Below are positions 7,630-58,420 of a DNA stretch of 64,000 nucleotides, in pieces (position 1 is the stretch's first letter; each line of letters begins with the position of its first letter). Source of the DNA: Pseudomonadota bacterium (GTDB lineage Bacteria; Pseudomonadota; Gammaproteobacteria; Ga0077536); assembly GCA_036130055.1 (NCBI GenBank), contig JAYYOR010000027.1, positions 121,532 to 185,531 on the forward strand, read 5' to 3'. The notes below the pieces were generated by a model. The model was not told the origin of the DNA and ran no database searches. It was given only the letters and a program-made list of their open reading frames with translations. The translations under genes were made by a program, and so were the position numbers.

Positions 7630-9167
<1,538 letters not shown>

Positions 9168-9189
9168 TCTTTCTAATTAAACAATTTTC

Positions 9190-9801
9190 TTAAGAGTTAC
9201 CAAACTTTTCGTTCTTTTCTTTCAACGATATGATTAATTGGTCAAGTCCTTGTGTTTCAATAATAGATTTAAATGACCCGCGGTAAGTTTTTACCAAACT
9301 CACACCACTAACTGACACATCAAATGCTAACCATCGGCCCTTACTATTATGAAGTCTATAAACTATAGATACTGCTTCACCCTGCGGATTAATCCTTTGA
9401 ACTATTTTAGCGGTCTTTCCTTTTTGTATATTCTCGTCCAATGGGTAATCAATTGTTTGGTTGGAGAATTCTAATAATGCAGAAGCATATGTCCTTACAA
9501 GTAGTTTCCTAAACTCATCAATAAATTCACCTTTTTGTTTTACGGCCGCTTTTTCCCAGTAAGCACCTAGCACAAATCTAGACATAACGGCAAAGTCAAA
9601 GTGAGGGAAGACTAAGTCCGAAACCAAATTATACATTTCACCCGGGTTATCCTTTAGCTTATCTTTATCCGACTCTATCTTACTGAGCACTTTATCGGTT
9701 GTTGATTGAATGATGCCCAGGGGCTCTAAAGACTCAGAAAATGAATGCGAGGAATTCAATGCGAATAGGACAATAGCAATCTTTAGTAAAAGTCTAATCA
9801 T
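9190..9801 (-). CDS. mlaC: Periplasmic phospholipid-binding protein MlaC (Ttg2D family)
   Basis: 203 aa with a signal peptide and a Tgt2/MlaC-like sequence. It is not preceded by mlaFED in this window. Confidence 0.7.
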   Translation of the reverse strand: MIRLLLKIAIVLFALNSSHSFSESLEPLGIIQSTTDKVLSKIESDKDKLKDNPGEMYNLVSDLVFPHFDFAVMSRFVLGAYWEKAAVKQKGEFIDEFRKLLVRTYASALLEFSNQTIDYPLDENIQKGKTAKIVQRINPQGEAVSIVYRLHNSKGRWLAFDVSVSGVSLVKTYRGSFKSIIETQGLDQLIISLKEKNEKFGNS

Positions 9802-15029: not shown

Positions 15030-15365
15030 TCATTGTTTAATTGTTCCCTTAGGCACGACCTGCGCTATTGCCTGACGTTGAACCTTGACTTCTACATCTT
15101 TTGAAATCTCGATTTTCAGGAAACTGTCTTCCAGCACTTTTATCTTACCCAACAACCCACCATTTGTTACAACCTCATCCTCGATTTTTAGAGCATTAAT
15201 CATTTTAGTATGTTCTTTTTGTCGTTTCATTTGCGGCCTAATCAAAAAGATATAGAAAACAACAAATAATAAAATAAGGGGTATAAACTGTCCTATCCCC
15301 GGCGATTGACTCTCTGAAGCTGTTTGTGCGTATGCATTCGCTATTATAAAATCCATGTAACTCAA
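15030..15365 (-). CDS. yajC: Preprotein translocase subunit YajC
   Basis: 111 aa with a single transmembrane segment and the conserved 'LKKGDEVVT.GG..G' equivalent (EDEVVTNGGLLGKI). Confidence 0.85.
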   Translation of the reverse strand: MSYMDFIIANAYAQTASESQSPGIGQFIPLILLFVVFYIFLIRPQMKRQKEHTKMINALKIEDEVVTNGGLLGKIKVLEDSFLKIEISKDVEVKVQRQAIAQVVPKGTIKQ

Positions 15366-15411
15366 GCCTTCTTATAATTTTTGTAAATAGTTTACCACAG
15401 TCTAAAAATTA

Positions 15412-16512
<1,101 letters not shown>

Positions 16513-17609: not shown

Positions 17610-17693
17610 GCCGGGATGGCGAAATTGGTAGACGCGCCAGACTCAAAATCTGGTATAGGAAACTATGTGTGGGTTCGAGTCCCTCTCCCGGCA
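17610..17693 (+). tRNA. tRNA-Leu (anticodon CAA)
   Basis: Cloverleaf: acceptor GCCGGGA/UCCCGGC, anticodon stem CCAGA/UCUGG with loop CUCAAAA (anticodon CAA), a long variable arm and T-loop GGTTCGAGTCC. Similar to E. coli leuX. No CCA is encoded. Confidence 0.8.
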
Positions 17694-23154: not shown

Positions 23155-24015
23155 ATGATTATGTCAAAAAAATTCACAGGAAGCGAAAAATATATCGCCA
23201 CGAAAGATTTAATGATCGCGGTGAATGCCGCAGTGACTTTAGAGAAGCCTCTTCTTATCAAAGGAGAACCGGGTACCGGCAAGACGATGCTTGCGGAAGA
23301 GATGTCCAAAGCTCTTAATAAACCGTTAATTCAATGGCATATAAAATCGACCACAAAGGCAGCTCAAGGACTCTATGAGTATGATGCCGTTGCCCGACTC
23401 AGAGATTCGCAATTAGGGGATGATAAAGTAAATAAAATATCAAACTACATTGTAAAGGGAAAACTTTGGGAAACCTTCATATCAGAAGAACAACCGATTT
23501 TATTAATCGATGAAATAGACAAAGCAGATGTTGAGTTTCCAAACGACTTGTTGAGAGAATTGGATAGAATGGAATTTTTTGTTTACGAGACAAAAGAAAC
23601 TGTTAAAGCAAGTAACAAACCGATTATAGTTATTACAAGCAATAACGAGAAAGAACTTCCAGATGCCTTTCTTCGTCGGTGCTTCTTCCACTACATCTCT
23701 TTTCCAGACAAAGAAACTATGTCTGATATAGTCAACGTGCATTTTCCAAAAATCAAAAAGAAATTAATCAACGAAGCTCTTGAATGTTTTTTTGAACTTC
23801 GAGAAATTCCTGGGCTAAAGAAAAAACCAACGACTTCAGAGCTCCTTGACTGGATTAAATTATTAATAGCAGAAGATGTCCCGCCTGAAGCACTGAGAGA
23901 GAAAGATAGTAAAAAAGCAATCCCGAAACTTTATGGCGCACTTTTAAAAAATGAACAAGATATGCATCTGTTTGAGAGATTAGTTTTCCTATCGAGAAGA
24001 AACAGTGCTAGCTAA
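23155..24015 (+). CDS. MoxR-like AAA+ ATPase (CoxD family)
   Basis: 286 aa with Walker A GEPGTGKT and Walker B LLIDEID. It overlaps the downstream VWA gene. Confidence 0.75.
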   Translation: MIMSKKFTGSEKYIATKDLMIAVNAAVTLEKPLLIKGEPGTGKTMLAEEMSKALNKPLIQWHIKSTTKAAQGLYEYDAVARLRDSQLGDDKVNKISNYIVKGKLWETFISEEQPILLIDEIDKADVEFPNDLLRELDRMEFFVYETKETVKASNKPIIVITSNNEKELPDAFLRRCFFHYISFPDKETMSDIVNVHFPKIKKKLINEALECFFELREIPGLKKKPTTSELLDWIKLLIAEDVPPEALREKDSKKAIPKLYGALLKNEQDMHLFERLVFLSRRNSAS

Positions 24016-25183
24016 GTTCTTTGATAATTTAAGAAAAACCAATATTCCAGTATCCATTACCGAATATCTAACACTTTTAAGTGCTCTTGAAAAAAATATC
24101 GTGGATATAGATCTTGATAGTTTTTACTATTTAGCAAGAAGTTGTTTGGTGAAAGATGAGAAACACTTTGATAGTTATGACATTGTTTTTTCTAATTATG
24201 TTGAGGGAAATGAACTTGAGCTCGAGAAAATACTGGAGTCGATTCCTCTCGAATGGTTAAAAAATCCTGATAAGCTCGCTCTTAGTAACGAAGAGAAGGA
24301 ATTAGTTGAATCATTAGGTGGTCTAGATAAACTTTTAGATGAATTTAAGAAAAGGCTTCAAGAACAAACGAAGAAGCATCAAGGTGGAAATAAATGGATT
24401 GGTACCGCAGGCCGCTCTCCTTTTGGTAACAAAGGTTATAACCCGGAGGGAATTAAAATTGGAGATTTTCAAAGTGGAGAGAAAACGGCTTTAAAAGTAT
24501 GGGACCAAAGAGTTTACAAAAATCTTGATAATAACGTAGAGCTGGGCACAAGGAATATCAAAGTCGCCCTACGTCAATTAAGAAAACTAGCGAGAGAGGG
24601 TGCTAAGGACAAATTGAACCTGGATAGCACAATCACGGCTACGGCTAAAAATGGGGGATTTTTGGATTTGCAACTCGAAGCAGAAAAGACAAATTCAGTT
24701 AAGGTTTTATTATTTTTAGATATTGGGGGATCGATGGACCCCTACGTTCGTATGACGGAACAACTATTTTCTGCGGCTAAAAGCGAATTCAAATATCTTG
24801 AACACTTCTATTTCCATAATTTTATTTATGAATCTTTATGGAAAGACAACTCTATGCGAATGAATTCTAGAATACCAACTACGGAAGTCATAAATACTTA
24901 TAATTCTAACTATAAAGTTTTCTTTGTTGGTGATGCGACCATGAGCCCATATGAAATAGGATCGGTCGGTGGAAGCGTCGAACATTGGAATGAAGAAGCA
25001 GGACTGACTTGGATTAGCCGAGTTCTAAATACATTTCCTAAAGCGGTTTGGTTAAATCCACAACCCAAGCAATTCTGGAATAGCATTCAATCCATTTCCA
25101 TAATCAAAGAAATATTTGCTGAACGAATGTTTCCGTTAACAACTGACGGTATTTCGAATGCTGTAAATTTATTGCGAAAATAA
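24005..25183 (+). CDS. VWA-domain protein, CoxE-like
   Basis: 392 aa. The N-terminus 'FFDNLRKTNIPVSITEYLTLLSAL' is like CoxE-family VWA proteins. It pairs with the MoxR ATPase. Confidence 0.7.
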   Translation: MLAKFFDNLRKTNIPVSITEYLTLLSALEKNIVDIDLDSFYYLARSCLVKDEKHFDSYDIVFSNYVEGNELELEKILESIPLEWLKNPDKLALSNEEKELVESLGGLDKLLDEFKKRLQEQTKKHQGGNKWIGTAGRSPFGNKGYNPEGIKIGDFQSGEKTALKVWDQRVYKNLDNNVELGTRNIKVALRQLRKLAREGAKDKLNLDSTITATAKNGGFLDLQLEAEKTNSVKVLLFLDIGGSMDPYVRMTEQLFSAAKSEFKYLEHFYFHNFIYESLWKDNSMRMNSRIPTTEVINTYNSNYKVFFVGDATMSPYEIGSVGGSVEHWNEEAGLTWISRVLNTFPKAVWLNPQPKQFWNSIQSISIIKEIFAERMFPLTTDGISNAVNLLRK

Positions 25184-29908: not shown

Positions 29909-30430
29909 ATGACGAAAGCGAACCACAGAACTAAATTTATTATAAAATTTTTGCCCTTATTTGTGGTGGCTTTTATTCTTTTTTTTTGTCAACGCCAGGG
30001 TCTGTCAATCGAGAAACAAGATAGCAAAGAATTGCAAAATAATTTTCAGACTATACTGCAAACCGACATAAATAGGCCTCTCAGTCAAGAAGCAAAAAAA
30101 ATTTTAGAGCAGAATGGAACTGAACCCCCCTTTTCAAGTCCACTTCTGTACGAGAAGAGAAAAGGAACATATCACTGTGCCAAATGCGGCAATTTATTAT
30201 TCACCTCTGAAATGAAGTATGAAAGCGGAACTGGATGGCCATCTTTTTACGACCATGTAACAGGTAGTCTTGAGAAAAAGTTAGACTTCAGTCTTATTAT
30301 TCCGCGGACTGAATACCATTGCTCTCGCTGCGGAGGCCATCAAGGACATGTTTTTAAAGATGGTCCGGCACCCACTTTCCTACGTTGGTGCAATAATGGC
30401 TTAGCTTTAAATTTTAGACCAAGAAAATAA
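29909..30430 (+). CDS. msrB: Peptide-methionine (R)-S-oxide reductase
   Basis: 173 aa with the MsrB zinc and catalytic motifs CAKCG...GWPSF...HCSRCGGHQGHVF, and an N-terminal hydrophobic segment. Confidence 0.85.
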   Translation: MTKANHRTKFIIKFLPLFVVAFILFFCQRQGLSIEKQDSKELQNNFQTILQTDINRPLSQEAKKILEQNGTEPPFSSPLLYEKRKGTYHCAKCGNLLFTSEMKYESGTGWPSFYDHVTGSLEKKLDFSLIIPRTEYHCSRCGGHQGHVFKDGPAPTFLRWCNNGLALNFRPRK

Positions 30431-30506
30431 TACGCTAAAGCACTTGCATCAGCTCGTCCTACGATGTATATGTAACCTCTCGGAGCACTGAAGGAGTTCT
30501 AAACCG

Positions 30507-31844
30507 ATGGCGATTTTCAAAAACACAAAATATGCAATTATTGGAGCGGGTATTCACGGATTAAGCACCGCTTATCATCTAGCAGTTGAACTGAAAAAAA
30601 ACGGTAAAGGAAGCGGCGAAGACATTCTTGTAATAGACAAGGGAGGAATAGGAGCAGGGGCCTCAGGGATAGCCTGCGGCGTTGTAAGAAACAACTACTA
30701 TCAGCCTGCTATGAGAGAGCTTATGGCACAGTGCGTTGAAGTATGGGAGAGTGATCCCGAAGCCTTTAGTTATCACCCGGTCGGCTATATGCAAATATCA
30801 CCCGTGTGTATGAGAGAAGATGTGAACTCTATATTCGAACAACAAAGAGCGATAGGTTATGAATCAGAATTTATCGAAGGAACAGGTGATTCATCTGAGT
30901 ATATGAAATCAATTTTCTCAGATTGGCGAGCACAAGGCATAACATCTGTTCTTCATGAAAAACGGGGAGGATACGCAAATAACAGTAAATCTGTCTACGG
31001 TTTAGCAAAAAAAGCGGAAAATGAAGGTGTAAAAATTCTAACCGGAGTGACAGTAACAGGATTCCAATTCGACAACCAGTCAGACGCAGTCAAAGCCCTT
31101 GAGACAGATAAAGGTCTAATTAACTGCGAATATTTGATAGTTGGAGCCGGGCCTTGGATAAAATCAATCTGGGAATACTTGGAGCTTCCTAAAACGGTAA
31201 AGTTCACTGGCAAAGACGGAAAACAAAAAGAGGTCCCTATGTGGATTTACTGGTCGTTGCAAGAGGGAACTTTAGGCGTGGATCCAAATATGTTGAAAAC
31301 GGATTCCGGAGACAAACCGCCCGTCATCCACGTTGACTCTGATGCCCCTCTTGTCGGTGAAGAAGGTGAGACGATCACGGAAAAACTTTGGGGTATTTAC
31401 TACAAACCTGACTTTCACTTCAATGGAATTCAAGGAGGGTCTGCTCCATTTATAGTTCAATCTGAACCTGATTCAGTAAATGTAGATCCATACGGACCGG
31501 CGTCCCCAGACTTTGTAGTAGGCCCCGATTTCGCTTACTCTTGGTGCAGTGCTCTATCTCACTGTCAAAAAAGGTTTGAAGGAATGTCAGGTTTATTTAA
31601 AAAAGAACCCTCTGGTGGAATTGGTGCTTTCAGCCCGGATAGTTTCCCCATATTTGATGAATTTAGGCAGAACTGTTACATAATTGCAGATTCAAACCAT
31701 GGCTACAAAATGCTCGGAGTGGGTAAGCTTGTAGCGGAAAAACTCATGGGTGAGCCTTCTTCTCTTCTGCAGCCTTTTAGATTTTCTCGATATGAGGAAA
31801 AAGAATCCCATCCCACTTCTAATAGCCCTTTTCCATGGAGCTAA
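30507..31844 (+). CDS. FAD-dependent oxidoreductase (DAO/sarcosine-oxidase-beta-like superfamily)
   Basis: 445 aa with an N-terminal Rossmann 'YAIIGAGIHGLSTAYHLA' and an AAGGAG RBS 7 nt upstream. It is a paralogue of the soxB/mgdA-like gene at 36992 and sits directly upstream of the gmaS-like gene. Confidence 0.6.
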   Translation: MAIFKNTKYAIIGAGIHGLSTAYHLAVELKKNGKGSGEDILVIDKGGIGAGASGIACGVVRNNYYQPAMRELMAQCVEVWESDPEAFSYHPVGYMQISPVCMREDVNSIFEQQRAIGYESEFIEGTGDSSEYMKSIFSDWRAQGITSVLHEKRGGYANNSKSVYGLAKKAENEGVKILTGVTVTGFQFDNQSDAVKALETDKGLINCEYLIVGAGPWIKSIWEYLELPKTVKFTGKDGKQKEVPMWIYWSLQEGTLGVDPNMLKTDSGDKPPVIHVDSDAPLVGEEGETITEKLWGIYYKPDFHFNGIQGGSAPFIVQSEPDSVNVDPYGPASPDFVVGPDFAYSWCSALSHCQKRFEGMSGLFKKEPSGGIGAFSPDSFPIFDEFRQNCYIIADSNHGYKMLGVGKLVAEKLMGEPSSLLQPFRFSRYEEKESHPTSNSPFPWS

Positions 31845-31909
31845 AAGCGAAATAGTTAAGATTCTAGTGGGAAACATGGTAAACCTAAAATAAAGAAGGG
31901 GAATATAGA

Positions 31910-33382
31910 GTGAGTGAAACTGACCTTGAAATATATGTGGCGGACAAGCAAAGAGCTGAACTAGTAAAAAAAGTTAGAAGTAAAATTAATGAACTTAATA
32001 TTCAGTATATTTATTACCAATTTATTTCTGTTACTGGAAGGATTGTGGGGAAAGGAATCCCAGCTGATCATTGGGAAAGAACTGCCACTAAAGGATTTCA
32101 ACTAGTTTACGGTTCAACCGCAAATTTATTTATTGACAGGCACGACCAATACATTGGCTACGGACCGGAAGCAATGGAGCTAGTAGGTATCCCAGACCCT
32201 GATACCTTCTGCCAACTCCCATGGGATAAAAGGGTAGCAAGAGTTTACTGCGTTTGCTTCAGAAACCGCGAGGAACGAGAAAATCCAGGAGCGTTTTTAA
32301 CCTCCGATTGTAGAGGTAATTTAAAGCGGGCTCATTCCGATTTTAAAGAAAAATACGGAATGGAGTTAAGGGCTGGAACAGAACCTGAGATGATGTGGCT
32401 AAAGCGAGGTGAAGATGGGAAACCTAATGGTGGAGTAACCGAGCCTTACTGTTATCACATTGACCAATTTGAAAGCCTTAGACCAGTCTTTATGAAAGTT
32501 ATCGAGTACGGACAGGCAATGGGACTCGACATGATTCAAGGTGACCATGAGGATGCTCCCGGTCAACTTGAGCTAAATTGGACTTTCGATGATGTGGTGA
32601 GAAATGCAGACAGGTTATCCACTTACCGACAGATTTGCGCTCAAGTTGCTCGAGAAAATAACCTCATCGCTTGTTTCATGTCTAAACCGTTTATGGGCGT
32701 ATCTGCATCAGGCTGCCATACCAATATCTCGCTTTGGAAAGGTGGAAAGAACTCAATTAACAAGCTCCATCAAAATATTTTACCAGGAATGGATGGGGTA
32801 TTTACTTATCGCGAGGGAGGCGAGAATTTGTTTATGCCAGATACTGATGATCCCCAGTTACCTGGAAAGGTTGGGCTGCAATGCGTGGGAGGAATCGTAA
32901 AACATCTCGGGGCACTAACAGCAATTGGTTGCTCTACGGTAAATTCTTACAGAAGATTATGGGATACAGGTTTCTGGGCGCCCGTTTTCGCAGACTGGGG
33001 ATTTCAGAACCGTACAACTGGGCTTAGAGTCTCCGCGCCAGGAAGATTCGAGTACAGAGCAGTTGACTCGATGGTAAACCCATATCTTCTAGGTTCGGCT
33101 CTATTAAGTGCATTCGAGGATGGAATCGACAATGACATTGATCCAGGTGAACCGGAAAATCGAAATATTTATGAGGCTATGGAGGCCGGGAAACAAGTTA
33201 AACGGTTGCCCATGTCTCTCGGCGAAGCTCTTCAAAGACTCGAGGACGACGAAGTGATCAAAGCATCAATGCCAGGAGATATGTATAAGATCTACAAATG
33301 GTACAAGAATGATGAACACGAAAAATTCATGGCTACGGTAACGGACTGGGACCAAGAAATGTACATGGATTGTCTTCCATAA
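31910..33382 (+). CDS. gmaS: Glutamine-synthetase-family protein (candidate gamma-glutamylmethylamide synthetase)
   Basis: 490-aa glutamine-synthetase catalytic-domain protein that is not a type I GlnA. The gmaS assignment rests on its position directly upstream of mgsABC-like genes. Confidence 0.6.
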   Translation: MSETDLEIYVADKQRAELVKKVRSKINELNIQYIYYQFISVTGRIVGKGIPADHWERTATKGFQLVYGSTANLFIDRHDQYIGYGPEAMELVGIPDPDTFCQLPWDKRVARVYCVCFRNREERENPGAFLTSDCRGNLKRAHSDFKEKYGMELRAGTEPEMMWLKRGEDGKPNGGVTEPYCYHIDQFESLRPVFMKVIEYGQAMGLDMIQGDHEDAPGQLELNWTFDDVVRNADRLSTYRQICAQVARENNLIACFMSKPFMGVSASGCHTNISLWKGGKNSINKLHQNILPGMDGVFTYREGGENLFMPDTDDPQLPGKVGLQCVGGIVKHLGALTAIGCSTVNSYRRLWDTGFWAPVFADWGFQNRTTGLRVSAPGRFEYRAVDSMVNPYLLGSALLSAFEDGIDNDIDPGEPENRNIYEAMEAGKQVKRLPMSLGEALQRLEDDEVIKASMPGDMYKIYKWYKNDEHEKFMATVTDWDQEMYMDCLP

Positions 33383-33403
33383 CAAAAAAACAAGGAGCGC
33401 ATC

Positions 33404-34348
33404 ATGTGTGGAATAGCGGGGGTAATTCATAGAAATGGCAACTCAAAAATAGGGGAAGAAATGTCCTCTATGCTTCAGGCAATGAAGCACAGAGGGCCAG
33501 ACTCAACGGGATTTGCACTTTATTGCGAACGAAACGAGGGGCATCCGGATCAGTATGTTATGCGTATGAAGGTTGCGGAGAGCCACGAAACTGCTAAAGG
33601 TTATGATATTCATGCGAAAATGGAAGAGCGAATAAAAAATGTGGAACTCCGCCTCAAGGAACTTAATGTCAAAGTGTTAGAAGCCGAAAAGATTACCGAT
33701 TACGCATTACGTTATACCTTCAACTGTGACGGGAATCTTCGACAGTTAGCCAACTACGTTGAAGATGTAGAAGGGGTCGAAATACTCTCTATTGGGAAAG
33801 GGTTAGAACTAGTGAAAGATTTAGGAGATGCAACAGTGGTATCGGATCTTTACTCCTTAAATTCTTTCAATGGAACTCACGCGATTGGCCATACCCGCAT
33901 GGCCACTGAATCAGATGTCGATATAAGGTCGGCCCACCCCTATTGGGCCTATCCTTTCGCTGACGTATCCGTCGTTCATAATGGACAATTGACCAATTAC
34001 TGGTCAAAAAGACGTGAATTGGAGAGAAAAGGGCATAGATTTATGTCTAGTTGCGATTCAGAACTTATTGCAGTTTATATCGCTGACAAAATTGAACAAG
34101 GAAAAAACCTAGAAGACTCCATGCGGCAAAGCGTCGACGAGTTAGACGGCGTTTTTACATACTTACTAGCAACATCAGATTCTTTGGGGATGGCTAAAGA
34201 TACGATGGCTGCAAAACCAATGGTCCTTTTTGAAAGTGACGACATAGTTGCCCTAGCTTCTGAGGAAGTCGCCATTAGAACCATCATGAATAACGAAATT
34301 GACACATCAGACCCATATGACGGAGAGGTAAGAGTATGGCAGGCCTAG
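33404..34348 (+). CDS. mgsA: Class II (Ntn) glutamine amidotransferase domain protein (N-methylglutamate synthase subunit A candidate)
   Basis: 314 aa beginning MCGIAG (catalytic Cys right after Met), matching the GltB N-terminal domain. Confidence 0.7.
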   Translation: MCGIAGVIHRNGNSKIGEEMSSMLQAMKHRGPDSTGFALYCERNEGHPDQYVMRMKVAESHETAKGYDIHAKMEERIKNVELRLKELNVKVLEAEKITDYALRYTFNCDGNLRQLANYVEDVEGVEILSIGKGLELVKDLGDATVVSDLYSLNSFNGTHAIGHTRMATESDVDIRSAHPYWAYPFADVSVVHNGQLTNYWSKRRELERKGHRFMSSCDSELIAVYIADKIEQGKNLEDSMRQSVDELDGVFTYLLATSDSLGMAKDTMAAKPMVLFESDDIVALASEEVAIRTIMNNEIDTSDPYDGEVRVWQA

Positions 34349-35184
34349 AAAAATCAAAGGAACCTCTGAAAACAGAGATGAGAACCGAGTCACTGCTCGG
34401 GAGAACCCAGCAAGTCTTTTTTTCACTTGATAACAATGAAGAAAAGATGTCCCAACCATTTACTTATGAAGTGGATTTTTCAAAATCAGCGGAGATTGAT
34501 GCGGAAAACCTAAACACAAGACAAATTAATAGCAAAATAAAACACCTTCTGACACAGGGACATGGAAGTATCACAATTAAAAACCCTGGGGCTAAGCATA
34601 GTATCGGAGTTGGAATATTAAATAGATTAAATTTGAGAATTGAAGGAAGTCTGGGATATTTTGGGCTAGGTTTACTTGACGGGCCAAACGTCACTGTTGA
34701 GGGAAGAGTTGGTTGGTCTTGCGGAGAAAATATGATGTCTGGAACTGTGCTTATTAAAAAAAACGCTGGTTCGACTTTCGGCGCCGCAATTAGAGGGGGC
34801 GACTTAGTATGTCGAGGTGATGTTGGGGCTAGGACTGGTATCGACCAAAAAGGCGGAACCATTATCGCAGGTGGAAGCACAGGTGCTTTCTCAGGATTTA
34901 TGATGCAGCGGGGAAGAATGGTTATACTCGGAGACGCCGGAAATAACTTAGGGGACTCAATGTACGATGGTACAATTTATGTCGGTGGAACAATCAAAAG
35001 CTTAGGAGCTGATGCGGTGGAAGCCGAAGTTACAACGGCAGACGAAAAATGGTTGCTTGAAAAACTAACCCTTTATGGATTAGCAGATAGGCTCGATTTA
35101 CCAACAATGAAGAAAGTGGTCTCTGGCAAACAACTATGGAATTACGATAGTCTTGAACCAAGCGAAAAAAAGCTTGTTCTATAA
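34336..35184 (+). CDS. mgsB: GXGXG-motif protein (glutamate synthase C-terminal domain homologue; N-methylglutamate synthase subunit B candidate)
   Basis: 282 aa with repeated G-x-G-x-G beta-helix motifs (GSITIKNPGAKHSIGVG..GDLVCRGDVGARTG...). Confidence 0.7.
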   Translation: MAGLEKSKEPLKTEMRTESLLGRTQQVFFSLDNNEEKMSQPFTYEVDFSKSAEIDAENLNTRQINSKIKHLLTQGHGSITIKNPGAKHSIGVGILNRLNLRIEGSLGYFGLGLLDGPNVTVEGRVGWSCGENMMSGTVLIKKNAGSTFGAAIRGGDLVCRGDVGARTGIDQKGGTIIAGGSTGAFSGFMMQRGRMVILGDAGNNLGDSMYDGTIYVGGTIKSLGADAVEAEVTTADEKWLLEKLTLYGLADRLDLPTMKKVVSGKQLWNYDSLEPSEKKLVL

Positions 35185-35204
35185 AACAAAAAGGAGCAAT
35201 ACCT

Positions 35205-36542
35205 ATGGCCGACGATAAGGAAAAATATTTATTAGGAAAAAGTCCTATCTTTACCCCAGATGTCGTGAACGACATTCATATCAAGTCTGAACTCGGCAGA
35301 TATCGTATGCGTGGCTTCTCGATGTTTAAAAAAGTGCCGGGATGGGATCAATTAACCTTCATGCCCGGAACATTAACAAGATTTGTAATAGAGGGGTACA
35401 GAGAGAAATGCGAAACTAAAACAATCATTGGTCCGAGAGCAAAACGTCCTATTGAATTAGATATACCTGTATACATCACCGGCATGAGTTTTGGAGCATT
35501 ATCCTTTGAGGCCAAAACCGCGCTAGCAAGGGGCGCAACGATGGCAGGTACAGCAACTTGTTCTGGAGAAGGGGGAATGATCCCAGACGAAAGACGCTTT
35601 TCCGAGAAATGGTTCTACCAGTGTATACAATCGAGATATGGCTTCAATCCTCAACATCTAAGATTGGCCGACGGTTGCGAATTTTTTATTGGACAAGGAG
35701 CAAAAGTTGGCCTAGGAGGCCACTTGATGGGTCAAAAAGTTACGGACCAAGTGGCAGAAATGCGTTCGCTTCCCGCAGGAATAGATCAAAGATCGCCTGC
35801 CAGGCATCCAGATTGGTTGGGGCCTGACGACCTGGCACTAAAAATCGAGGAAATAAGAGAGGCAACTAATTGGGAGATTCCTATTCAACTAAAACTGGGA
35901 GCTGCTAGGGTCTATGACGATGTTCGAATGGCAGCAAAAACCGATCCAGATTCGATATATATAGACGGTATGGAAGGTGGTACAGCAGCCGGACCACATC
36001 TTGCTTCTGAAGAAACAGGAGTTCCAGGAATTGCCGCTATTCGGCAAGCTAGGAGAGCTTTAGATGACGTCGGGAAAAGTGGGGAGATAACTCTAGTGTA
36101 CGCTGGGGGGATCAGGAATGGCGGAGACATTGCCAAAGCCCTAGCACTGGGCGCAGACGCTATTGCTATCGGTCACGCGTCAATGATGGCTTTAAACTGT
36201 AATAAAGACATCCCGGAAGCAAATTATGAGGAAGAAATGGGAGTTAAAGCCGGAAACTGTTACCATTGCCATACAGGTAGGTGTCCAGTTGGAATTGCTA
36301 CCCAAGACCCCAAATTGAGAGAAAGACTTGACCCAGATAAGGCTGCAGAAAGAGTCTATAATTTCCTGCATACACTAGCCATTGAGTGCCAAATGATGGC
36401 TCGGGCGTGCGGAAAAACGAACATACACTCCTTAGAACCTGAGGACTCAGCGGCACTTACGATGGAGGCGTCAGCAATGGCTCAAGTTCCGCTGGCTGGG
36501 ACGCAAGTTACAGTGGGAAGACCAGATTTAAACCGATTCTGA
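35205..36542 (+). CDS. mgsC: FMN-dependent glutamate-synthase-domain protein (N-methylglutamate synthase subunit C candidate)
   Basis: 445 aa matching the GltB FMN/Fe-S central domain, including the conserved C-terminal Cys cluster CYHCHTGRCPVGIATQD. Confidence 0.75.
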   Translation: MADDKEKYLLGKSPIFTPDVVNDIHIKSELGRYRMRGFSMFKKVPGWDQLTFMPGTLTRFVIEGYREKCETKTIIGPRAKRPIELDIPVYITGMSFGALSFEAKTALARGATMAGTATCSGEGGMIPDERRFSEKWFYQCIQSRYGFNPQHLRLADGCEFFIGQGAKVGLGGHLMGQKVTDQVAEMRSLPAGIDQRSPARHPDWLGPDDLALKIEEIREATNWEIPIQLKLGAARVYDDVRMAAKTDPDSIYIDGMEGGTAAGPHLASEETGVPGIAAIRQARRALDDVGKSGEITLVYAGGIRNGGDIAKALALGADAIAIGHASMMALNCNKDIPEANYEEEMGVKAGNCYHCHTGRCPVGIATQDPKLRERLDPDKAAERVYNFLHTLAIECQMMARACGKTNIHSLEPEDSAALTMEASAMAQVPLAGTQVTVGRPDLNRF

Positions 36543-36561
36543 TTAGTATCGAATACACTGA

Positions 36562-36966
36562 ATGGAGAACGTAATGAGTGAAAAAAAAGATATTGACCAC
36601 TACCTAAAATCAGATGGTGTCGACTCTGAGCGAGAGAAAATGATCGGTCAAACAATCGGGTATCGTTATGATGTGAACTTGTTGCCAGACCTCTCAAAGC
36701 TAACACCATTCTTGAAAAAATATCTAGACTTCATGGGTTGGAAAGACTTGAACTGGTTAGAAGACATCCACATGGGGTATGAAGAAGGGCGTGCAGCGGT
36801 CTTTGACCGAAATATTAACGGATGGGTGACTGTTCCACCCGACCTAAAGCTGCCAGATAATCAACAAGAAAGAGATATGATTGCAAGAGAACTACTAGTA
36901 AAATTTCAAATGTCTGATAATCACCCTCTAGTAGCACTTAGAACAGCATATGGAAAATTCGACTAA
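36562..36966 (+). CDS. Hypothetical protein (134 aa) embedded between the mgsC-like and soxB/mgdA-like genes
   Basis: ORF on the same strand with tight spacing. I recognise no motif in it. Confidence 0.4.
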   Translation: MENVMSEKKDIDHYLKSDGVDSEREKMIGQTIGYRYDVNLLPDLSKLTPFLKKYLDFMGWKDLNWLEDIHMGYEEGRAAVFDRNINGWVTVPPDLKLPDNQQERDMIARELLVKFQMSDNHPLVALRTAYGKFD

Positions 36967-36991
36967 AATTTTTTGATCCTTTATTTAAGAA

Positions 36992-38233
36992 ATGTCTATT
37001 AGATTATTAAAGTACGGGTTCATTGATAACCACGCGGAAGAGCGTTGGTTCAACCCAGCAAAAGAACTTCAAGATTCATACGACGTTGTTATAATCGGAG
37101 CGGGAGGTCATGGCTTAGCTTGTGCTTATTATCTTTCTCATTACCATGACGTTAGAAAAGTTGCTGTTTTAGAAAAAAATTATATAGGCGCCGGCAACAC
37201 TGGTAGAAACACAACCATCATTAGATCAAATTATCTGACAGAGGAAGGAGTTAAATTCTACGGTGAGAGTGTTCGTCTTTTTAACCAACTGTCAGAAGAA
37301 TTAGAAACTAATATTTTTTTCTCAGAAAGAGGACACTTTACTCTTGCGCACAGTGACGCTACTTTAAGGACTGCAAGATGGCGGGCAGAAGTTAACAAAC
37401 ACTACGGAATAGAAAGTAGCGTTGTCGGGCCATCCGAGGTTAAAACAGCTTGCCCGGAAATCGACCTGAGTTGTGGGGGCAACCATCCTATTGAAGGAGC
37501 ACTTTTTCATGCTCCAGGGGCAGTTGCGAGACATGACGCAGTAGCTTGGGGGTATGCAAAGAAAGCTTGCCAACAAGGAGTAGAAATCCACCAGCACACC
37601 GAGGTTGAAGGGATTAATATCGAAAACAATAAAATTACTTCAGTCCAAACCAATAGAGGCTTAATCAAGACCGATACCGTTCTTTCTGCTGTCGCAGGAG
37701 CTACCCCGACTATACTAAATATGGTCGGCCTCGATTCCCCAATCGATATTTATCCTCTTCAGGCTTGCGTGACTGAACCTATGAAACCATGGTTAGACAC
37801 TATAATCGTTTCTGGTAGCCTTCATATCTATGTAAGTCAAAGCTCGAGAGGTGAATTAGTTATGGGTGCTTCAGTAGATCCGGTCGAACAACATAACACC
37901 AAATCCAGTTTTGAATTTGTATCTGGTATGTGCGATCAAATTCTGGACTTGTTCCCCTTCTTAAGCACCGTAAAAATAAATAGGCAATGGGCAGGCATGG
38001 CGGACATGACACCAGATTTTGCTCCTATTATGGGCACGACTCCAGTCGATGGTTTTTTTCTTGATTCGGGCTGGGGTACCTGGGGGTTTAAAGCGACGCC
38101 TGTTAGCGGTAAATCTTTGGATAATTCAACCGATAAAAATAAAAACGACCCTCTTATTAGCGGCTTTAATCTTAGCAGATTTAAGGACTTTAAACTCGTA
38201 GGTGAAAAAGGAGCCGCGTCCGTAGGACATTAG
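36992..38233 (+). CDS. soxB: Sarcosine oxidase beta-subunit family protein (N-methylglutamate dehydrogenase subunit A candidate)
   Basis: 413 aa. 'DVVIIGAGGHGLACAYYL...GNTGRNTTIIRSNYL' is nearly identical in pattern to heterotetrameric SoxB. Confidence 0.85.
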   Translation: MSIRLLKYGFIDNHAEERWFNPAKELQDSYDVVIIGAGGHGLACAYYLSHYHDVRKVAVLEKNYIGAGNTGRNTTIIRSNYLTEEGVKFYGESVRLFNQLSEELETNIFFSERGHFTLAHSDATLRTARWRAEVNKHYGIESSVVGPSEVKTACPEIDLSCGGNHPIEGALFHAPGAVARHDAVAWGYAKKACQQGVEIHQHTEVEGINIENNKITSVQTNRGLIKTDTVLSAVAGATPTILNMVGLDSPIDIYPLQACVTEPMKPWLDTIIVSGSLHIYVSQSSRGELVMGASVDPVEQHNTKSSFEFVSGMCDQILDLFPFLSTVKINRQWAGMADMTPDFAPIMGTTPVDGFFLDSGWGTWGFKATPVSGKSLDNSTDKNKNDPLISGFNLSRFKDFKLVGEKGAASVGH

Positions 38234-38243
38234 TATATTAAAA

Positions 38244-38480
38244 ATGAAATACTTAGACTGTCCAATTATAGGGGAAAGACCCATTTCTGAATTTATTTAT
38301 GGGGGCTCGATAGACCCAGAACCATCTAACTTTGATGGTTCTGCAGGATGGTGGGCTTATCATCAAGATAGCCGACCACTCACGCGGAAAGAGTGGTGGT
38401 ACCATCAACCTACCCAGACGTGGTTCAGAGTTAAGCGAGATACAGAAGCTAATATCATTCTCTCAATCGAGGAAAATTGA
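38244..38480 (+). CDS. soxD: Sarcosine oxidase delta-subunit family protein
   Basis: 78 aa with a SoxD-like N-terminus 'MKYLDCPIIGERPISEFIYGG'. It overlaps the soxA start. Confidence 0.8.
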   Translation: MKYLDCPIIGERPISEFIYGGSIDPEPSNFDGSAGWWAYHQDSRPLTRKEWWYHQPTQTWFRVKRDTEANIILSIEEN

Positions 38481-41332
38481 TGGCTAGACGACTACCCCAT
38501 AAAAGTTCCGAATGGATAGACCGTTCCAATAGAATAAAATTCAGATTCGAAAACAAAGAAATAATGGCTTTTAAAGGCGATTCTATAACCAGCGCTTTGA
38601 TTGCTAATGGGGAAAAAATACTTGGAAGAAGTTTCAAATACCATAGACCAAGAGGATTTGTTTCACTGGCTAATCATGACGCAAACGTCATGCTTCAATC
38701 GGAAGATAGCACTAATATTAGAGCCGACGTGACGTTAGCAAAAAACAGCCAAGGAGATTTAAGATCAATCAACACTTTTGGTGGAGTCAGACATGATTTA
38801 ACCAAAATACTTGGGCTGTTCGCGCCTGTATTACCCGTTGGTTTTTATTATAAAGCTTTTTTTAAACCTGCTTTTTTGTGGCCATATTGGGAAAAACTTA
38901 TCAGAAAACTAGCTGGACTTGGAGAGGTTAAACCCAGTTACGACAAAAAGAGATATCCATCACAAACACTGTTTTGCGATATCCTAATCATCGGGGGCGG
39001 TGCTGCGGGGACGGCAGCAGCTGCTCACTTTTCTAAAAGTAATTTCAAAGTAATTATGGCTGATGAAAATTTTAAATTAGGCGGCTCCTCGAGTTTTGAC
39101 GCAGAAGAGGCGCTAAAAGATATCGAGTCTAATATTGAACAACTCAATACACCGAATATCACTTGCCTAACTCAGCACTTTGCTAGTGGATATTACGATG
39201 ATAAAACGGTGATTTTAGAAGGGCCTAAAGGTTGTAAACAAGTGTGTGCAAAAGCAATCATTTTAGCTTCAGGGGCGTATGAGCAACCTGCTGTCTTCAG
39301 AAACAATGACTTACCATGTGTAGTTTTGGGTTCATCCGTAGCCAGACTCGCTCACAGATACTCAATTGATCCTTTTGAAAAATCAATAGCGTTAGTTGGA
39401 AACAACATCGGTTTTCGACGTCTTCTCAAGCTAAAATCTATCGGTATAAATATAGGATGTATTTTACAACTATCGGGCTTTGAGACAAAAGAGTCAACAA
39501 GAAAACAAGCAGAATCAATGGGAATTGAGGTAGTAAACGAGGTAATTCCGATTGAAGCGATTTCAAAAGGTGAATGCTTAAGCTCATTTGTTTATCGCAC
39601 CGTTAATGATCCATCCTCCAAAGTGATTGACTGCGATGGCTTAATTATGAGCGTAGGATGGTCTCCTGCTTCGAACCTACTAGTACAGGCAGGTGGAAAA
39701 CTAAAGTATGTTGAGGAAATTAACCAATTAGTCCCCGATAAACTACCAAGTGGAGTGTTTGTTGCAGGTATGATACGCGGAATCTATGATTTGGAAAAAA
39801 GAGTTCGTGATGGCAAACAAGCTGCAGAAGCTTGTGAAGCCTATTTAGAAAAAAGAAATGCTCCAAACGCGATTCAGGAGGACTACGAAAACCAAAGTCA
39901 CCCGTATCCTATTTATTCTCATCCCAAGGGAAATGAGTTTGTTGACCTGGACGAGGACTTAAAACTAAAAGATCTGGTAACTGGAATGAAAGAGGGGTTT
40001 GATTCAATCGAGCTACTCAAAAGATACAGCACGATTGGAATGGGACCAAGCCAAGGGAAGATTTCAAACCTGAATGGAATCAGAATCGTCGCAGACTTTA
40101 ATAATCTCCCGGTGGGAAATATAGGTACTGTAACTCCAAGACCTTTTGTCTATCCAGTACCTATTGGAAAACTGGCAGGCAGACGAATTCGGAGAGAAAG
40201 AAGAACAAGCCTTGATCAATTTCATACAGAAAAGTTGGCTGATATAAAAGAAAATGGAATATGGAGACGTCCTATGGCGTATGGTGGCTTTGCCTCCAGA
40301 GAAAATATCGCGAGGGAGTATTCTGTAGTAAGAAATGCAGTAGGTATTATTGATGTGTCTACCCTGGGTAAAATAGAGCTATTGGGACCTGACGCTAGAA
40401 ATCTTTTAGAGTACGCATACACTTGCAAATTCGACAAGTTAAAAGTAGGAATGACTCGGTATATTTTTATGGTTGACGCCGGAGGAACGCTTGTTGATGA
40501 CGGGGTCGCGGCCAAACTTGGTGAGGACCATTTTTACATTACTGCAACCAGTAGCCATTCGCAGACAGTGCTAAGACTACTTGAACTATTCAAGATGCAG
40601 CTGCAGCTCGATGTGACCATTTGGGATCATACTGGTCAAGTTGGTGCTATCAACCTTGCGGGACCTTCCTCAAAAAAAGTTCTCACGGATGTGGTTGATA
40701 TTCCACTAGATGCTGATAGTTTTCCCTATCTGGGCTATCGAGAAGCAGAGGTTTGTGGAATTACCTCGAGAATTATGCGGGTAGGTTTTGTGGGAGAGTT
40801 GGGCTACGAAATACATATGCCTACAAACAGTCTGATTAAGGTTTGGAATGGTCTGCTTGACGTAGGCTCAAGCAGACAAATTATGCCTTTTGGAGTAGAG
40901 GCACAAAGATTACTTCGTTTAGAGAAAGGGCATTTAATTTTTGGCCAAGATACTGACGGCAACACTAACCCTTTTGAGGTAAATCTTGGATGGGGCGTCA
41001 ACCTTAAAAAAGAACGATTTTATGGCCGGAATAGCTTAAAAGTTCTCAAACAAAACATTACTAGAAAATTAGTCGGTTTCGAAATGGATGACTTGAGAGG
41101 ACTAGAAATCAAAGAGAATAACCTTACTATAGACCAAAACACGATAACAGGTAGAGTTACAAGTATAAATTTCAGCCCGACACTAAAAAAAATAATTGGT
41201 CTAGCAATGATAGACGCTCCCTACCTAGAAAAAGATTCAATCCATATTAGACTTGATGATGGATCAAGTTTAGAAGCTCTGATTGTTCCTGCTAGCTTCT
41301 ATGATCCAGAAAATGAAAGGCAGAAAATATGA
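38477..41332 (+). CDS. soxA: Sarcosine oxidase alpha-subunit family protein
   Basis: 951 aa with an NAD/FAD Rossmann motif (IIGGGAAGTAAA) and a C-terminal aminomethyltransferase (GcvT-like) folate-binding domain. Confidence 0.85.
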   Translation: MMARRLPHKSSEWIDRSNRIKFRFENKEIMAFKGDSITSALIANGEKILGRSFKYHRPRGFVSLANHDANVMLQSEDSTNIRADVTLAKNSQGDLRSINTFGGVRHDLTKILGLFAPVLPVGFYYKAFFKPAFLWPYWEKLIRKLAGLGEVKPSYDKKRYPSQTLFCDILIIGGGAAGTAAAAHFSKSNFKVIMADENFKLGGSSSFDAEEALKDIESNIEQLNTPNITCLTQHFASGYYDDKTVILEGPKGCKQVCAKAIILASGAYEQPAVFRNNDLPCVVLGSSVARLAHRYSIDPFEKSIALVGNNIGFRRLLKLKSIGINIGCILQLSGFETKESTRKQAESMGIEVVNEVIPIEAISKGECLSSFVYRTVNDPSSKVIDCDGLIMSVGWSPASNLLVQAGGKLKYVEEINQLVPDKLPSGVFVAGMIRGIYDLEKRVRDGKQAAEACEAYLEKRNAPNAIQEDYENQSHPYPIYSHPKGNEFVDLDEDLKLKDLVTGMKEGFDSIELLKRYSTIGMGPSQGKISNLNGIRIVADFNNLPVGNIGTVTPRPFVYPVPIGKLAGRRIRRERRTSLDQFHTEKLADIKENGIWRRPMAYGGFASRENIAREYSVVRNAVGIIDVSTLGKIELLGPDARNLLEYAYTCKFDKLKVGMTRYIFMVDAGGTLVDDGVAAKLGEDHFYITATSSHSQTVLRLLELFKMQLQLDVTIWDHTGQVGAINLAGPSSKKVLTDVVDIPLDADSFPYLGYREAEVCGITSRIMRVGFVGELGYEIHMPTNSLIKVWNGLLDVGSSRQIMPFGVEAQRLLRLEKGHLIFGQDTDGNTNPFEVNLGWGVNLKKERFYGRNSLKVLKQNITRKLVGFEMDDLRGLEIKENNLTIDQNTITGRVTSINFSPTLKKIIGLAMIDAPYLEKDSIHIRLDDGSSLEALIVPASFYDPENERQKI

Positions 41333-41988
41333 ACGAAGTCGCAAATAGCAATAGTCCTCTGCAAGCTTTTTTTGACGAATCAATAAGCGAAATAAAAATA
41401 TTTCAATCTTGTGAAGTCAGCGCACTAAAAAAACCGATCAAGGCCAAAGAAGATGATAGTTACATATTTGATTTATCGTGCATAAAAAAATTTGCTGTAG
41501 TTGGTAAAGAAGCTCGAATCGTTGTTGAAAAATACTTCGAGATTAGTCCTATTAACTTATTTCAATGGACCTCTGTTGGTAGTGGTGGATTAATTTGTTT
41601 GGCTAAGGATAAGATTGTCTTGGTTAATTCATATGACGGCTCCCTGATCGATGGCTTTACAAACGCTATCCCATCGGACCCAAAAAAGCATATCGTACAA
41701 AGAGCAGATTATAGTGAAATTGCACTTTCGGGACCCCTAGCATCAGTAATTTTAGAAGAACTCGTACCAGTTCCTAGTTCAGCTTGGTCTCAGACGGGCC
41801 TTTTATGCAGCTCATTAGCCGGCGCCAATGTTATTTTGCGTAAAGTAAATAATCAGCCCAATCACTTGCGATGTATAATTCAGCCAGCTGACACCCATTA
41901 TGTCTTAAAAGCAATGATGGAAATAAACCGCGAGTTGAATGGTCACCTCGGCTGCATATTCAGCTATCTAAATACATTCCAACCTTAA
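41329..41988 (+). CDS. soxG: Sarcosine oxidase gamma-subunit family protein
   Basis: 219 aa. It overlaps the soxA stop, and its size and position fit SoxG. Confidence 0.65.
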   Translation: MNEVANSNSPLQAFFDESISEIKIFQSCEVSALKKPIKAKEDDSYIFDLSCIKKFAVVGKEARIVVEKYFEISPINLFQWTSVGSGGLICLAKDKIVLVNSYDGSLIDGFTNAIPSDPKKHIVQRADYSEIALSGPLASVILEELVPVPSSAWSQTGLLCSSLAGANVILRKVNNQPNHLRCIIQPADTHYVLKAMMEINRELNGHLGCIFSYLNTFQP

Positions 41989-57633: not shown

Positions 57634-57707
57634 TGGCTATGGGTGGGATCGAACCACCGACCTCGGCGTTATGAGTGCCGCGCTCTAACCGGCTGAGCTA
57701 CATAGCC
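57634..57707 (-). tRNA. tRNA with CAU anticodon (elongator tRNA-Met; tRNA-Ile2/lysidine type not excluded)
   Basis: The reverse complement GGCTATGTAGCTCAGCCGGTTAGAGCGCGGCACTCATAACGCCGAGGTCGGTGGTTCGATCCCACCCATAGCCA folds as a cloverleaf with anticodon loop CUCAUAA. G1-C72 pairs, so it is not an initiator. Confidence 0.75.
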
Positions 57708-58230: not shown

Positions 58231-58420
58231 TGTTTTCGTCTGAACCGAGTTCTTTACGGATATTTTCATAATCATGGTTTTCCAGCTGGCCGATTTTAAA
58301 ATGCCAATATAACCAATAAATTACGACAAATATCAGCCAAATAAATTCAGTTCCCAAGAGTGGGTATATTTCGAAAACTTCACTAAAATTTAATTTATTC
58401 CAATCAACAATAGTTGCCAT
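58217..58420 (-). CDS. Small membrane protein downstream of amt
   Basis: 67 aa with one hydrophobic helix. Its start overlaps the amt stop (same strand), suggesting translational coupling. Confidence 0.3.
   Translation of the reverse strand: MATIVDWNKLNFSEVFEIYPLLGTEFIWLIFVVIYWLYWHFKIGQLENHDYENIRKELGSDENIKNQ

Follow-up and report, generated by a model that had tools for sequence, protein, structure and literature searches.

Methylated amines are a major currency of nitrogen and of one-carbon (C1) units in the sea, and they are precursors of aerosols. Their oxidation by way of glutamate, in the N-methylglutamate (NMG) pathway, has been characterised in Methyloversatilis universalis, Methylocella silvestris, Ruegeria pomeroyi and Rhodovulum, and involves a gamma-glutamylmethylamide synthetase (GmaS), an N-methylglutamate synthase (MgsABC) and an N-methylglutamate dehydrogenase (MgdABCD). 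The subject of the present analysis is a block of ten genes, here called g1 to g10, at positions 30507-41988 of a 64,000-nt stretch of DNA (the window) from a gammaproteobacterium of the GTDB lineage Ga0077536 (assembly GCA_036130055.1, contig JAYYOR010000027.1, positions 121,532 to 185,531 of the forward strand). An earlier note on this DNA had seen in the block the signature of the NMG pathway, which is correct as regards the architecture and the methylated-amine context but not as regards the identity of its parts with GmaS, MgsABC and MgdABCD. Instead, the block is very probably a complete paralogous copy of NMG-type logic, by which a small alkylamine would be processed via glutamate, and the substrate of its first six genes may tentatively be put down as dimethylamine (DMA), the product of trimethylamine N-oxide (TMAO) demethylase, in lineages without DmmDABC.

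The island on Rhizobium etli p42e, in which the genes run in the order mgdDCBA, glxA, mgsABC, glnT, purU, folD, dmmDABC, tmm ... tdm, served as the sequence reference for the canonical pathway. The block resembles this pathway in its protein families and their split into subunits, in its methylated-amine context and in the pocket residues of the ligase. Unlike it, all recognisable parts of the block are distant paralogues, the ligase is 55 amino acids (aa) longer and carries two insertions, the delta subunit is without a zinc motif, two additional conserved genes (g1 and g6) are present, and the module formed by g1-g6 coexists with a canonical set in many genomes. Within the R. etli island dmmDABC holds the slot equivalent to that of the module, between gmaS and tmm/tdm, although it encodes unrelated proteins (heme-PAS DUF3445, PDR-type reductase, GcvT-like); should DMA indeed be the substrate, DmmDABC would be the functional counterpart of the module. 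A closer likeness is seen in SAR11, where the genes SAR11_1304-1309 of ‘Ca. Pelagibacter ubique’ HTCC1062 have a gene order identical to that of g1-g6 and the published numbering fits. There, however, the module is flanked by tdm on one side and amt-mgsABC-gmaS on the other and the sox operons are found elsewhere, whereas in the window it lies between msrB and groES and is joined to a Sox-like operon of its own, with no tdm, tmm or canonical set.

The last four genes, g7-g10, share their order and domains with heterotetrameric sarcosine oxidase (TSOX; PDB 2gag, 1x31). They differ from it in that identity of the beta subunit is 41%, TIGR01373 and TIGR01372 are matched with scores under their cutoffs, the delta subunit is devoid of zinc-binding cysteines and the gamma subunit cannot be recognised from its sequence. 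Other amines are catabolised through gamma-glutamylation in the Puu route of E. coli and in the Ipu isopropylamine pathway. These also begin with an ATP-dependent ligase of the glutamine synthetase (GS) family that acts on an alkylamine, but they go on to oxidise the gamma-glutamyl amide (by P450, oxidase or aldehyde dehydrogenase) and then split it by means of a hydrolase resembling type-1 amidotransferases, whereas the ligase in the window is coupled to a synthase resembling glutamate synthase (GOGAT).

The block itself is as it had been described, with ten intact open reading frames (ORFs), all on the + strand, that are separated by 65, 21, -13, 20, 19, 25, 10, -4 and -4 bp (three short overlaps) and whose Pfam and NCBIfam matches comprise a ligase of the GS family, a GOGAT-like trio split over separate genes, and a Sox-like set. 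A tally of one, three and four genes had placed these families correctly but left g1 and g6 uninterpreted; both turn out to be core members of a distinct conserved module. This module was traced through a scan of species-representative genomes that yielded 80 loci, in which genes were identified with a set of reference proteins as tblastn queries, and co-occurrence was counted over 10-kb neighbourhoods in the 52 loci that have at least 8 kb on both sides. The module has the order DAO-family flavoprotein, GS490, glutamine amidotransferase, GXGXG protein, flavin mononucleotide (FMN) protein and a protein of 130 aa, and the counterparts of g1-g6 are 54-90% identical in those 47 of the 52, from SAR11, SAR324, Alphaproteobacteria and Gammaproteobacteria, in which g3-g6 are present. 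Genes g3-g6 follow the ligase in 47 loci, g1 is found in 37, an Amt-type transporter in 34, Tdm in 30, a canonical GmaS in 26, and an orthologue of the SoxB of the window in 4.

The relationship to the canonical pathway is clearest in SAR324, where two sets stand side by side at loci L008 and L009. The canonical set, by Tdm, consists of a GS of 435 aa, an amidotransferase of 299, a GXGXG protein of 226 and an FMN protein of 442; the corresponding lengths in the second are 490, 311, 279 and 443, accompanied by a 125-aa protein, a ferredoxin and a DAO-family protein of 443 aa. Identities of g1-g6 to the second set are 65, 78, 68, 61, 86 and 74%, and those of g2-g5 to the canonical set 26, 32, 38 and 52%. 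Since both sets occur at the same loci, g2-g5 must be regarded as paralogues, and not as orthologues, of gmaS and mgs. Compared with GlnT and MgsABC of R. etli, the canonical SAR324 proteins are 62, 52, 60 and 85% identical as against about 31-32, 32, 39 and 52% for g2-g5. Strict orthology of the block to gmaS, mgs and mgd is thus ruled out by the TIGR cutoffs (below), the canonical SAR324 copy and the R. etli identities. At L008/L009 a 2Fe-2S ferredoxin and a 198-aa protein without a Pfam match (15252-16234) lie between g6 and g1; homologues of the latter (33-66% identity) occur near the module in 11 of the 52 loci, with none in the window.

The module is found beside canonical gmaS-mgsABC and next to tdm in SAR324, in SAR11 and in several gammaproteobacteria, and only the paralogous set is seen near tdm at L007, L014 and L020. 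Pelagibacter loci (including HTCC9565 and two complete genomes) show the order TmoX, Tdm, g1-g6, Amt and canonical MgsABC-GmaS, and g1-g6 of the window are 56-79% identical to their counterparts there. In HTCC1062, SAR11_1302 is numbered as a transporter, 1303 as an aminomethyltransferase (Tdm), 1304 as a ‘monomeric sarcosine oxidase’, 1305 as glnT and 1308 as gltB2, followed by amt (SAR11_1310), glxBCD (SAR11_1313-1315) and a second glnT (SAR11_1316). From this order and numbering, rather than from a direct comparison with the HTCC1062 sequence, we infer that g1-g6 represent the SAR11_1304-1309 type of module. The ligase is 73-86% identical across phyla and the module occurs in thousands of 90% clusters. 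Members of the ligase family in cyanobacteria (L073, L074, L089 and L090; 73-74% identical) are not accompanied by g3-g6. Cyanobacteria have GS490 right behind Tdm and Tmm, and no canonical gmaS lies within the 10-kb flanks. Around these cyanobacterial genes were noted Tdm, Tmm, a di-iron protein resembling FA_desaturase and an alpha/beta hydrolase (L073), Tmm with the same two types of protein and a copper amine oxidase (L074), Tmm (L089) and Tdm (L090). Such neighbourhoods suggest that cyanobacteria might subject the same gamma-glutamyl amide to a different downstream chemistry. Genes of a PuuA-like GS clade cluster with GS490 at L011 (8435-9715, - strand) and L012 (4667-6067, + strand, and 8514-9800, - strand); these loci, which are among the closest relatives of the window, are by their gene content apparent multi-ligase amine loci.

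The ligase is encoded by g2 (31910-33382, + strand), a GS-family protein of 490 aa (hence GS490; Pfam Gln-synt_C, 5e-79) that is proposed to be a gamma-glutamyl-alkylamide synthetase. Its assignment to GmaS does not hold up, as it scores 295.7 bits with TIGR03105, the GlnT/GmaS equivalog model, for which the cutoff is 469.6. The canonical SAR324 ligase clears this model at 648.2 bits and scores 623 bits against the Rhodovulum enzyme RhGmaS (7cql). Identity of g2 is 29% to RhGmaS, 33% to the ‘glutamate-methylamine ligase’ 9qur, about 31-32% to R. etli GlnT and 26-33% across the GmaS group, marine canonical copies included. Against the PDB, type I-alpha glutamine synthetases are matched with 190 bits, 9qur with 177 and 7cql with 163, and the score with the GlnA model TIGR00653 (245.7) is also below the cutoff of 429. 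Neighbour-joining (NJ) trees place the g2 family in a long-stemmed clade distinct from three others, namely the GmaS clade (to which 7cql, 9qur, R. etli GlnT and the canonical copies of marine origin belong), the PuuA-like proteins and GSI, so that g2 groups neither with GmaS, as had been expected, nor with GlnA or PuuA; the claim of a separate clade rests on the gap between identities of at least 73% within it and at most 33% to GmaS. Database relatives form a tight family of 488-505 aa that are 77-97% identical (Arenicellales, SAR324 and Alphaproteobacteria). The closest kin outside this family (52-54%) are plasmid-borne ligases of Paracoccus sp. TOH (p2) and Ruegeria sp. SCSIO 43209. Clustered with them are another GS-like gene, a P450, a ferredoxin, type-1 amidotransferase-like hydrolases and aldehyde dehydrogenases. 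To judge by these genes, the clusters are of the gamma-glutamylation style of amine catabolism (Ipu/Puu-like). GS-family genes on actinobacterial plasmids (Streptomyces clavuligerus, Rhodococcus and Gordonia sp. KTR9) are 37-40% identical to g2, and the KTR9 match falls under a gene annotated as an FAD-dependent oxidoreductase, which may be a fusion.

In spite of this distance, the active site has been kept. When g2 and its family were aligned to RhGmaS, for which residue roles are taken from Wang et al. (PMC7948447), the pocket and catalytic residues Lys30', Tyr147, Gln175, Asp177, Glu179, Glu186, Asn188 and the arginines were found to be conserved across the family. In g2 the set that marks GmaS (Asp177, Glu186, Arg312 and the monomethylamine (MMA) pocket) corresponds to QGDHEDAPGQLELNW, CYH, an aligned Lys and the arginines of NR and LRV. 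The flap reads GFWAP, in which the Glu of true glutamine synthetases has been replaced by Trp as in GmaS, and the FDGSS motif, which holds the Asp50' of the GS ammonium site, was not found in g2 in the same alignment, the motifs of the GlnA ammonia site (Asp50', Ser53' and flap Glu327) being absent. Family members further carry an additional loop and, following the CHTN motif, about 26 inserted residues. Because the GmaS residue set is kept, the ammonium site of GS is lost and the nearest kin reside in gamma-glutamyl-amine clusters, the prediction that g2 is a gamma-glutamyl-alkylamide synthetase for a small amine is well supported at the level of class.

Downstream of the ligase is the GOGAT-like trio, whose subunits are encoded separately as in MgsABC. 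The 314-aa product of g3 (33404-34348, + strand) is a class-II amidotransferase of the N-terminal nucleophile (Ntn) type (GATase_7, 9e-16, with a match to GATase_6 as well), in which the N-terminus MCGIAG supplies the catalytic Cys; g4 (34336-35184, + strand) encodes a GXGXG beta-helix protein of 282 aa (2e-16) with an N-terminal extension of about 55 aa; and g5 (35205-36542, + strand) encodes an FMN-binding protein of 445 aa with a glutamate synthase domain (Glu_synthase, 1e-88). No GltD-like subunit is present in the block. The subunit split is therefore that of MgsABC, but the proposal that the three genes are mgsABC orthologues was not sustained, given 32, 39 and 52% identity to R. etli as compared with 52, 60 and 85% for the canonical SAR324 set. 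The MgsA paralogue g3 is 32% identical to both R. etli and canonical SAR324 MgsA and 68% to the second SAR324 set. For the MgsB paralogue g4 the values are 38-39% to canonical MgsB, over residues 54-271 only, and 61%, and for the MgsC paralogue g5 they are 52% to both canonical MgsC proteins (which are 85% identical to each other) and 86%. A further split trio was observed beside Amt and the module in L019 (2739-5536, - strand), a metagenome-assembled genome (MAG) of Arenicellales. Its identities, of 35-43% with g3-g5 and of 27-37% with the canonical set, imply at least three paralogous families of such GOGAT-like trios.

The small gene g6 (36562-36966, + strand), a conserved orphan without a Pfam match, always follows g5. 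As called it encodes 134 aa, but the true start is probably Met5, at 36574 rather than 36562, as nearly all homologues are 130 aa long and align from Met5. The protein is cysteine-free, has dozens of invariant polar residues, and has homologues in thousands of clusters; an exhaustive phmmer search of 1.84 billion representatives returned close relatives and fragments only, all of them at 53% identity or more, and among them no fusion that was informative. The canonical mgsABC sets that were inspected closely (L008/L009, L012 and R. etli, L095) do not include it. We propose that g6 may be an obligate partner or accessory subunit of a g3-g5 complex. A detached piece of GOGAT had been considered as another origin, and was rejected when the g6 profile, compared by hhalign with GltB of E. 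coli, gave a probability of 0.2%.

At the head of the module g1 (30507-31844, + strand) encodes a DAO-family FAD flavoprotein of 445 aa, proposed to be an oxidase or dehydrogenase of an N-alkyl amino acid or of an amine. The DAO match (Pfam, 1e-31) covers residues 9-223 only, that is the N-terminal half, and the best relatives, beta subunits of the SoxB type, are weak matches in the PDB (1y56_B, 51 bits; SoxB, 46 bits); an AlphaFold2 model had a pLDDT of 46 and was unusable. Orthologues of 58-71% identity stand beside the ligase in the 37 loci counted above. In view of the TmoX-Tdm-g1 order of the Pelagibacter loci and the published numbering (Sun 2011; Smith 2013), g1 would be the orthologue of SAR11_1304. 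In Smith 2013, where the function of SAR11_1304 is called uncertain, only one protein was more strongly up-regulated under nitrogen limitation; SAR11_1304 has been modelled as an amine demethylase or deaminase.

The remaining four genes have the beta-delta-alpha-gamma order, with SoxB, SoxD and SoxA (GcvT) domains in the first three and the gamma subunit recognised by position only. The SoxB-like beta subunit g7 (36992-38233, + strand; 413 aa; DAO, 6e-62) scores 338 bits against the TSOX beta subunit 2gag_B and 436 with TIGR01373 (soxB; cutoff 529). It is 41% identical to the TSOX beta subunit of Stenotrophomonas and 39% to R. etli MgdA. The 951-aa alpha subunit g9 (38477-41332, + strand), which is SoxA-like, combines Fer2_4, Pyr_redox_2, SO_alpha_A3, GCV_T and GCV_T_C domains, the GcvT portion being tetrahydrofolate-binding; its score with TIGR01372 (soxA) is 702 against a cutoff of 1164, and its identity to R. 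etli MgdC is 32%. The SoxD-like delta subunit g8 (38244-38480, + strand; 78 aa; SoxD, 8e-14) has lost the CxxC zinc motif, reading ‘CPIIG’ where R. etli MgdB has ‘CPHCG’, and the same loss is common to the SoxD proteins of this type at L011, L012, L013, L016 and L017 (e.g. ‘FPLLG’). In the SoxG/MgdD slot g10 (41329-41988, + strand; 219 aa), which overlaps g9 by 4 bp, gave no Pfam SoxG match, a GCV_T match at E=0.027 only and no BLAST similarity to R. etli MgdD; it is 26% identical to the gene in the same position at L017.

With the scores of g7 and g9 below the models and identities to R. etli this low, g7-g10 are not the mgdABCD genes that the earlier note took them for. At about 40% identity to both groups they do not belong firmly with sarcosine oxidases either, and on these comparisons they are best described as a third clade of the Sox/Mgd type. 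SoxB genes following GS490 at L012, L013, L016 and L017 are 68-72% identical to g7. Mgd-type copies, 75 and 66% identical to R. etli MgdA, lie beside the module at L010 and L088. In the window g7-g10 are linked only to the paralogous ligase/synthase set. At L012 their orthologues (72%) sit between GS490 and canonical mgsABC-gmaS, directly upstream of the latter, and this placement is the best available argument that g7-g10 would oxidise an N-methylated glutamate. The repeated linkage of the module to Sox/Mgd genes that are not orthologous to each other (window type at 4 loci, Mgd type at L010 and L088) speaks for an N-alkyl amino acid as its product.

Taken together, these assignments would amount to the following pathway, in which all reactions and the substrate are deduced from sequence and context. 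At the expense of ATP, the ligase g2 would link the amine with the gamma-carboxyl group of glutamate and so form a gamma-glutamyl-alkylamide. The amidotransferase g3 would then free the amine inside a g3-g5 complex, with g6 as a partner, and the FMN subunit g5 would re-attach it to the skeleton of 2-oxoglutarate to give an N-alkylglutamate, from which g1 and the four-subunit g7-g10 enzyme would strip the alkyl groups oxidatively, regenerating glutamate and passing C1 units to tetrahydrofolate on the GcvT domain of g9. For DMA the intermediates would be gamma-glutamyl-dimethylamide and N,N-dimethylglutamate, which g1 would convert to N-methylglutamate; the latter would yield glutamate by means of g7-g10 here, and of an Mgd or Sox enzyme encoded elsewhere in other lineages.

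Several observations argue for DMA as the substrate. Two methyl groups would call for two demethylating flavoenzymes, and the cluster has two. The module sits directly downstream of tdm, whose product is DMA, in the slot that dmmDABC occupies in R. etli; in cyanobacteria GS490 comes directly after Tdm and Tmm where no canonical gmaS is nearby. Within 10 kb of the module, DmmA, DmmB and DmmC had no match at any of 90 loci, nor had they one in the window, which agrees with reports (PMC5520151) that SAR11 and abundant Gamma- and Deltaproteobacteria of the sea lack dmmDABC, although HTCC1062 grows with TMAO as its sole nitrogen source. The retention of two sets in streamlined SAR11 genomes further argues against redundancy and for different jobs. 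With slightly greater reserve than attaches to the substrate, the module might be the DMA route of SAR11, of SAR324, of gammaproteobacteria of the SUP05/Arenicellales type and of some cyanobacteria, all of which are without DmmDABC.

A number of points weigh against this interpretation. We know of no GS-family enzyme that ligates a secondary amine, and the GmaS-like amine pocket of g2 means that MMA would fit equally well. Without a partner that binds folate, g1 would give off formaldehyde in free form; it lies outside the 10-kb neighbourhood in 15 of the 52 loci, and GS490 is present without g3-g6 at L012. Neither tdm nor tmm occurs in the 64,000-nt window. Regulation of g1 also seems to differ from that of g2 and g5, in that SAR11_1304 rises strongly under nitrogen limitation as SAR11_1305 and SAR11_1308 fall slightly. 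Lastly, in the literature searched, outside of which most subscription papers lie, no function was found to be assigned to SAR11_1305-1309, and nothing relevant on the metabolism of gamma-glutamyl-dimethylamide or N,N-dimethylglutamate.

It is conceivable, if somewhat unlikely, that the block is instead an isofunctional paralogue of the canonical pathway, with diverged enzymes that take MMA through gamma-glutamylmethylamide and N-methylglutamate to glutamate and methylene-tetrahydrofolate. The two sets might then differ in affinity or regulation, for example in serving nitrogen scavenging as opposed to energy. The architecture is the same and the pocket and catalytic residues of GmaS are fully kept; the window contains no canonical gmaS or mgs, so the block may be the only such pathway of the organism, just as only the paralogous set is near tdm at L007, L014 and L020, and transporters of the Amt type, for (methyl)ammonium, adjoin the module in 34 of the 52 loci. 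Isofunctionality would, however, leave both sets side by side in streamlined SAR11 as well as in SAR324 and several gammaproteobacteria, it offers no place for the conserved g1 and g6, which have no counterpart in the canonical pathway, and the closest kin of the ligase are not GmaS. A different division of labour, in which g1 alone is the DMA enzyme (a flavin amine oxidase or dehydrogenase forming MMA and formaldehyde) and g2-g6 are a second set capturing MMA, is improbable. It draws on the position of g1 directly after tdm in SAR11, on the strong induction of SAR11_1304 by nitrogen limitation with its modelling as an amine demethylase or deaminase, and on the suggestion of Lidbury et al. that SAR11_1304 is a putative DMA oxidase. 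Yet the 15 neighbourhoods from which g1 is missing keep g2-g6 and tdm, the DAO-family relatives that were found act on N-alkyl amino acids and not on free small amines, and the duplicate ligase and synthase would stay unexplained.

If the amine were other than a methylamine (ethylamine, ethanolamine, isopropylamine or another N-alkyl compound), the position of the module near tdm would be a sign of no more than a general ‘amine island’. The kinship of the ligase to enzymes of Ipu/Puu-like clusters (52-54%), the copper amine oxidase adjoining a cyanobacterial GS490 and the several further GS-like ligases near the module at L011 and L012 lend this some colour, but it is made unlikely by the repeated and specific link, in four phylum-level groups, to Tdm, Tmm, TmoX, canonical gmaS/mgs and Sox/Mgd-type genes, and by the folate-binding domain of g9, which implies that a C1 unit is released. 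Finally, one might suppose that the block serves ordinary nitrogen assimilation by GS and a split GOGAT, placed beside a true heterotetrameric sarcosine oxidase for the catabolism of glycine betaine. GlnA-type structures are indeed the top PDB matches of g2, by a small margin (190 vs 177 bits), and g7 is 41% identical to TSOX beta; but g2 is without Asp50' and the flap Glu for ammonia and has the catalytic set of GmaS, the scores fall below the TIGR00653, TIGR01373 and TIGR01372 cutoffs, there is no GltD-like subunit, and the gene context is one of methylated amines, all of which make this supposition very improbable indeed.

What is at stake in the DMA interpretation is a step, from DMA to MMA, that has been deemed missing in the most abundant marine heterotrophs, whence the idea of DMA as a ‘metabolic bottleneck’ (PMC5520151), and for which HTCC1062 is said to need an unknown isoenzyme (PMC8918994). 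A highly conserved and abundant six-gene module at the tdm/gmaS junction of SAR11 is a concrete candidate for this step, and if the interpretation is true the bottleneck in the surface ocean would be in part an annotation gap. Whatever the substrate, the block does not repeat the NMG pathway as described but is a full set of paralogues of it, including a six-gene module that had gone unnoticed beside the tdm of SAR11. Calling the pathway from domains alone (GS, split GOGAT and SoxBDAG) lumps together at least two ligase/synthase families and three Sox-type clades, and consequently surveys that use gmaS as a marker, as well as metabolic reconstructions, may count or miss the wrong genes.

The surroundings of the block fit the remark in the earlier note that it is an accessory island. 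Upstream lie a Na+/solute symporter, a gene of the anthranilate/aminodeoxychorismate synthase type, gshA and msrB, and downstream groES/groEL. Five independent contigs (marine metagenome/MAG) from the same species show this gene order too, and it recurs in other species, with the flanking genes (gshA, msrB, groESL) common only to the same-species contigs; G+C is 0.415-0.444 within the block (30000-38000) as against 0.36-0.39 in the flanks. Horizontal spread of the module under very strong constraint is suggested by the identities of its ligase and FMN subunit, which are 73-90% across Gammaproteobacteria, Alphaproteobacteria and SAR324 (and, for the ligase, Cyanobacteria). A scan for promoters and terminators gave counts at or below the shuffle expectation (26 vs 28 and 9 vs 11), so that no operon boundaries can be drawn from it, and in an Rfam scan of the whole window no riboswitch was found near the block, the sole matches being two tRNA genes at 17610-17693 (+ strand) and 57634-57707 (- strand). 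Upstream of the symporter, at 23155-25183 (+ strand), an AAA_5 (MoxR-like) ATPase is paired with a VWA/CoxE-like protein, a conserved arrangement that is also found on the same-species contigs. About 16 kb from the block, at 58420-59781 (- strand), the window contains an Amt-family transporter gene that is 62% identical to the module-adjacent Amt of SAR324 and SAR11 and could be the cognate (methyl)ammonium transporter of the block.

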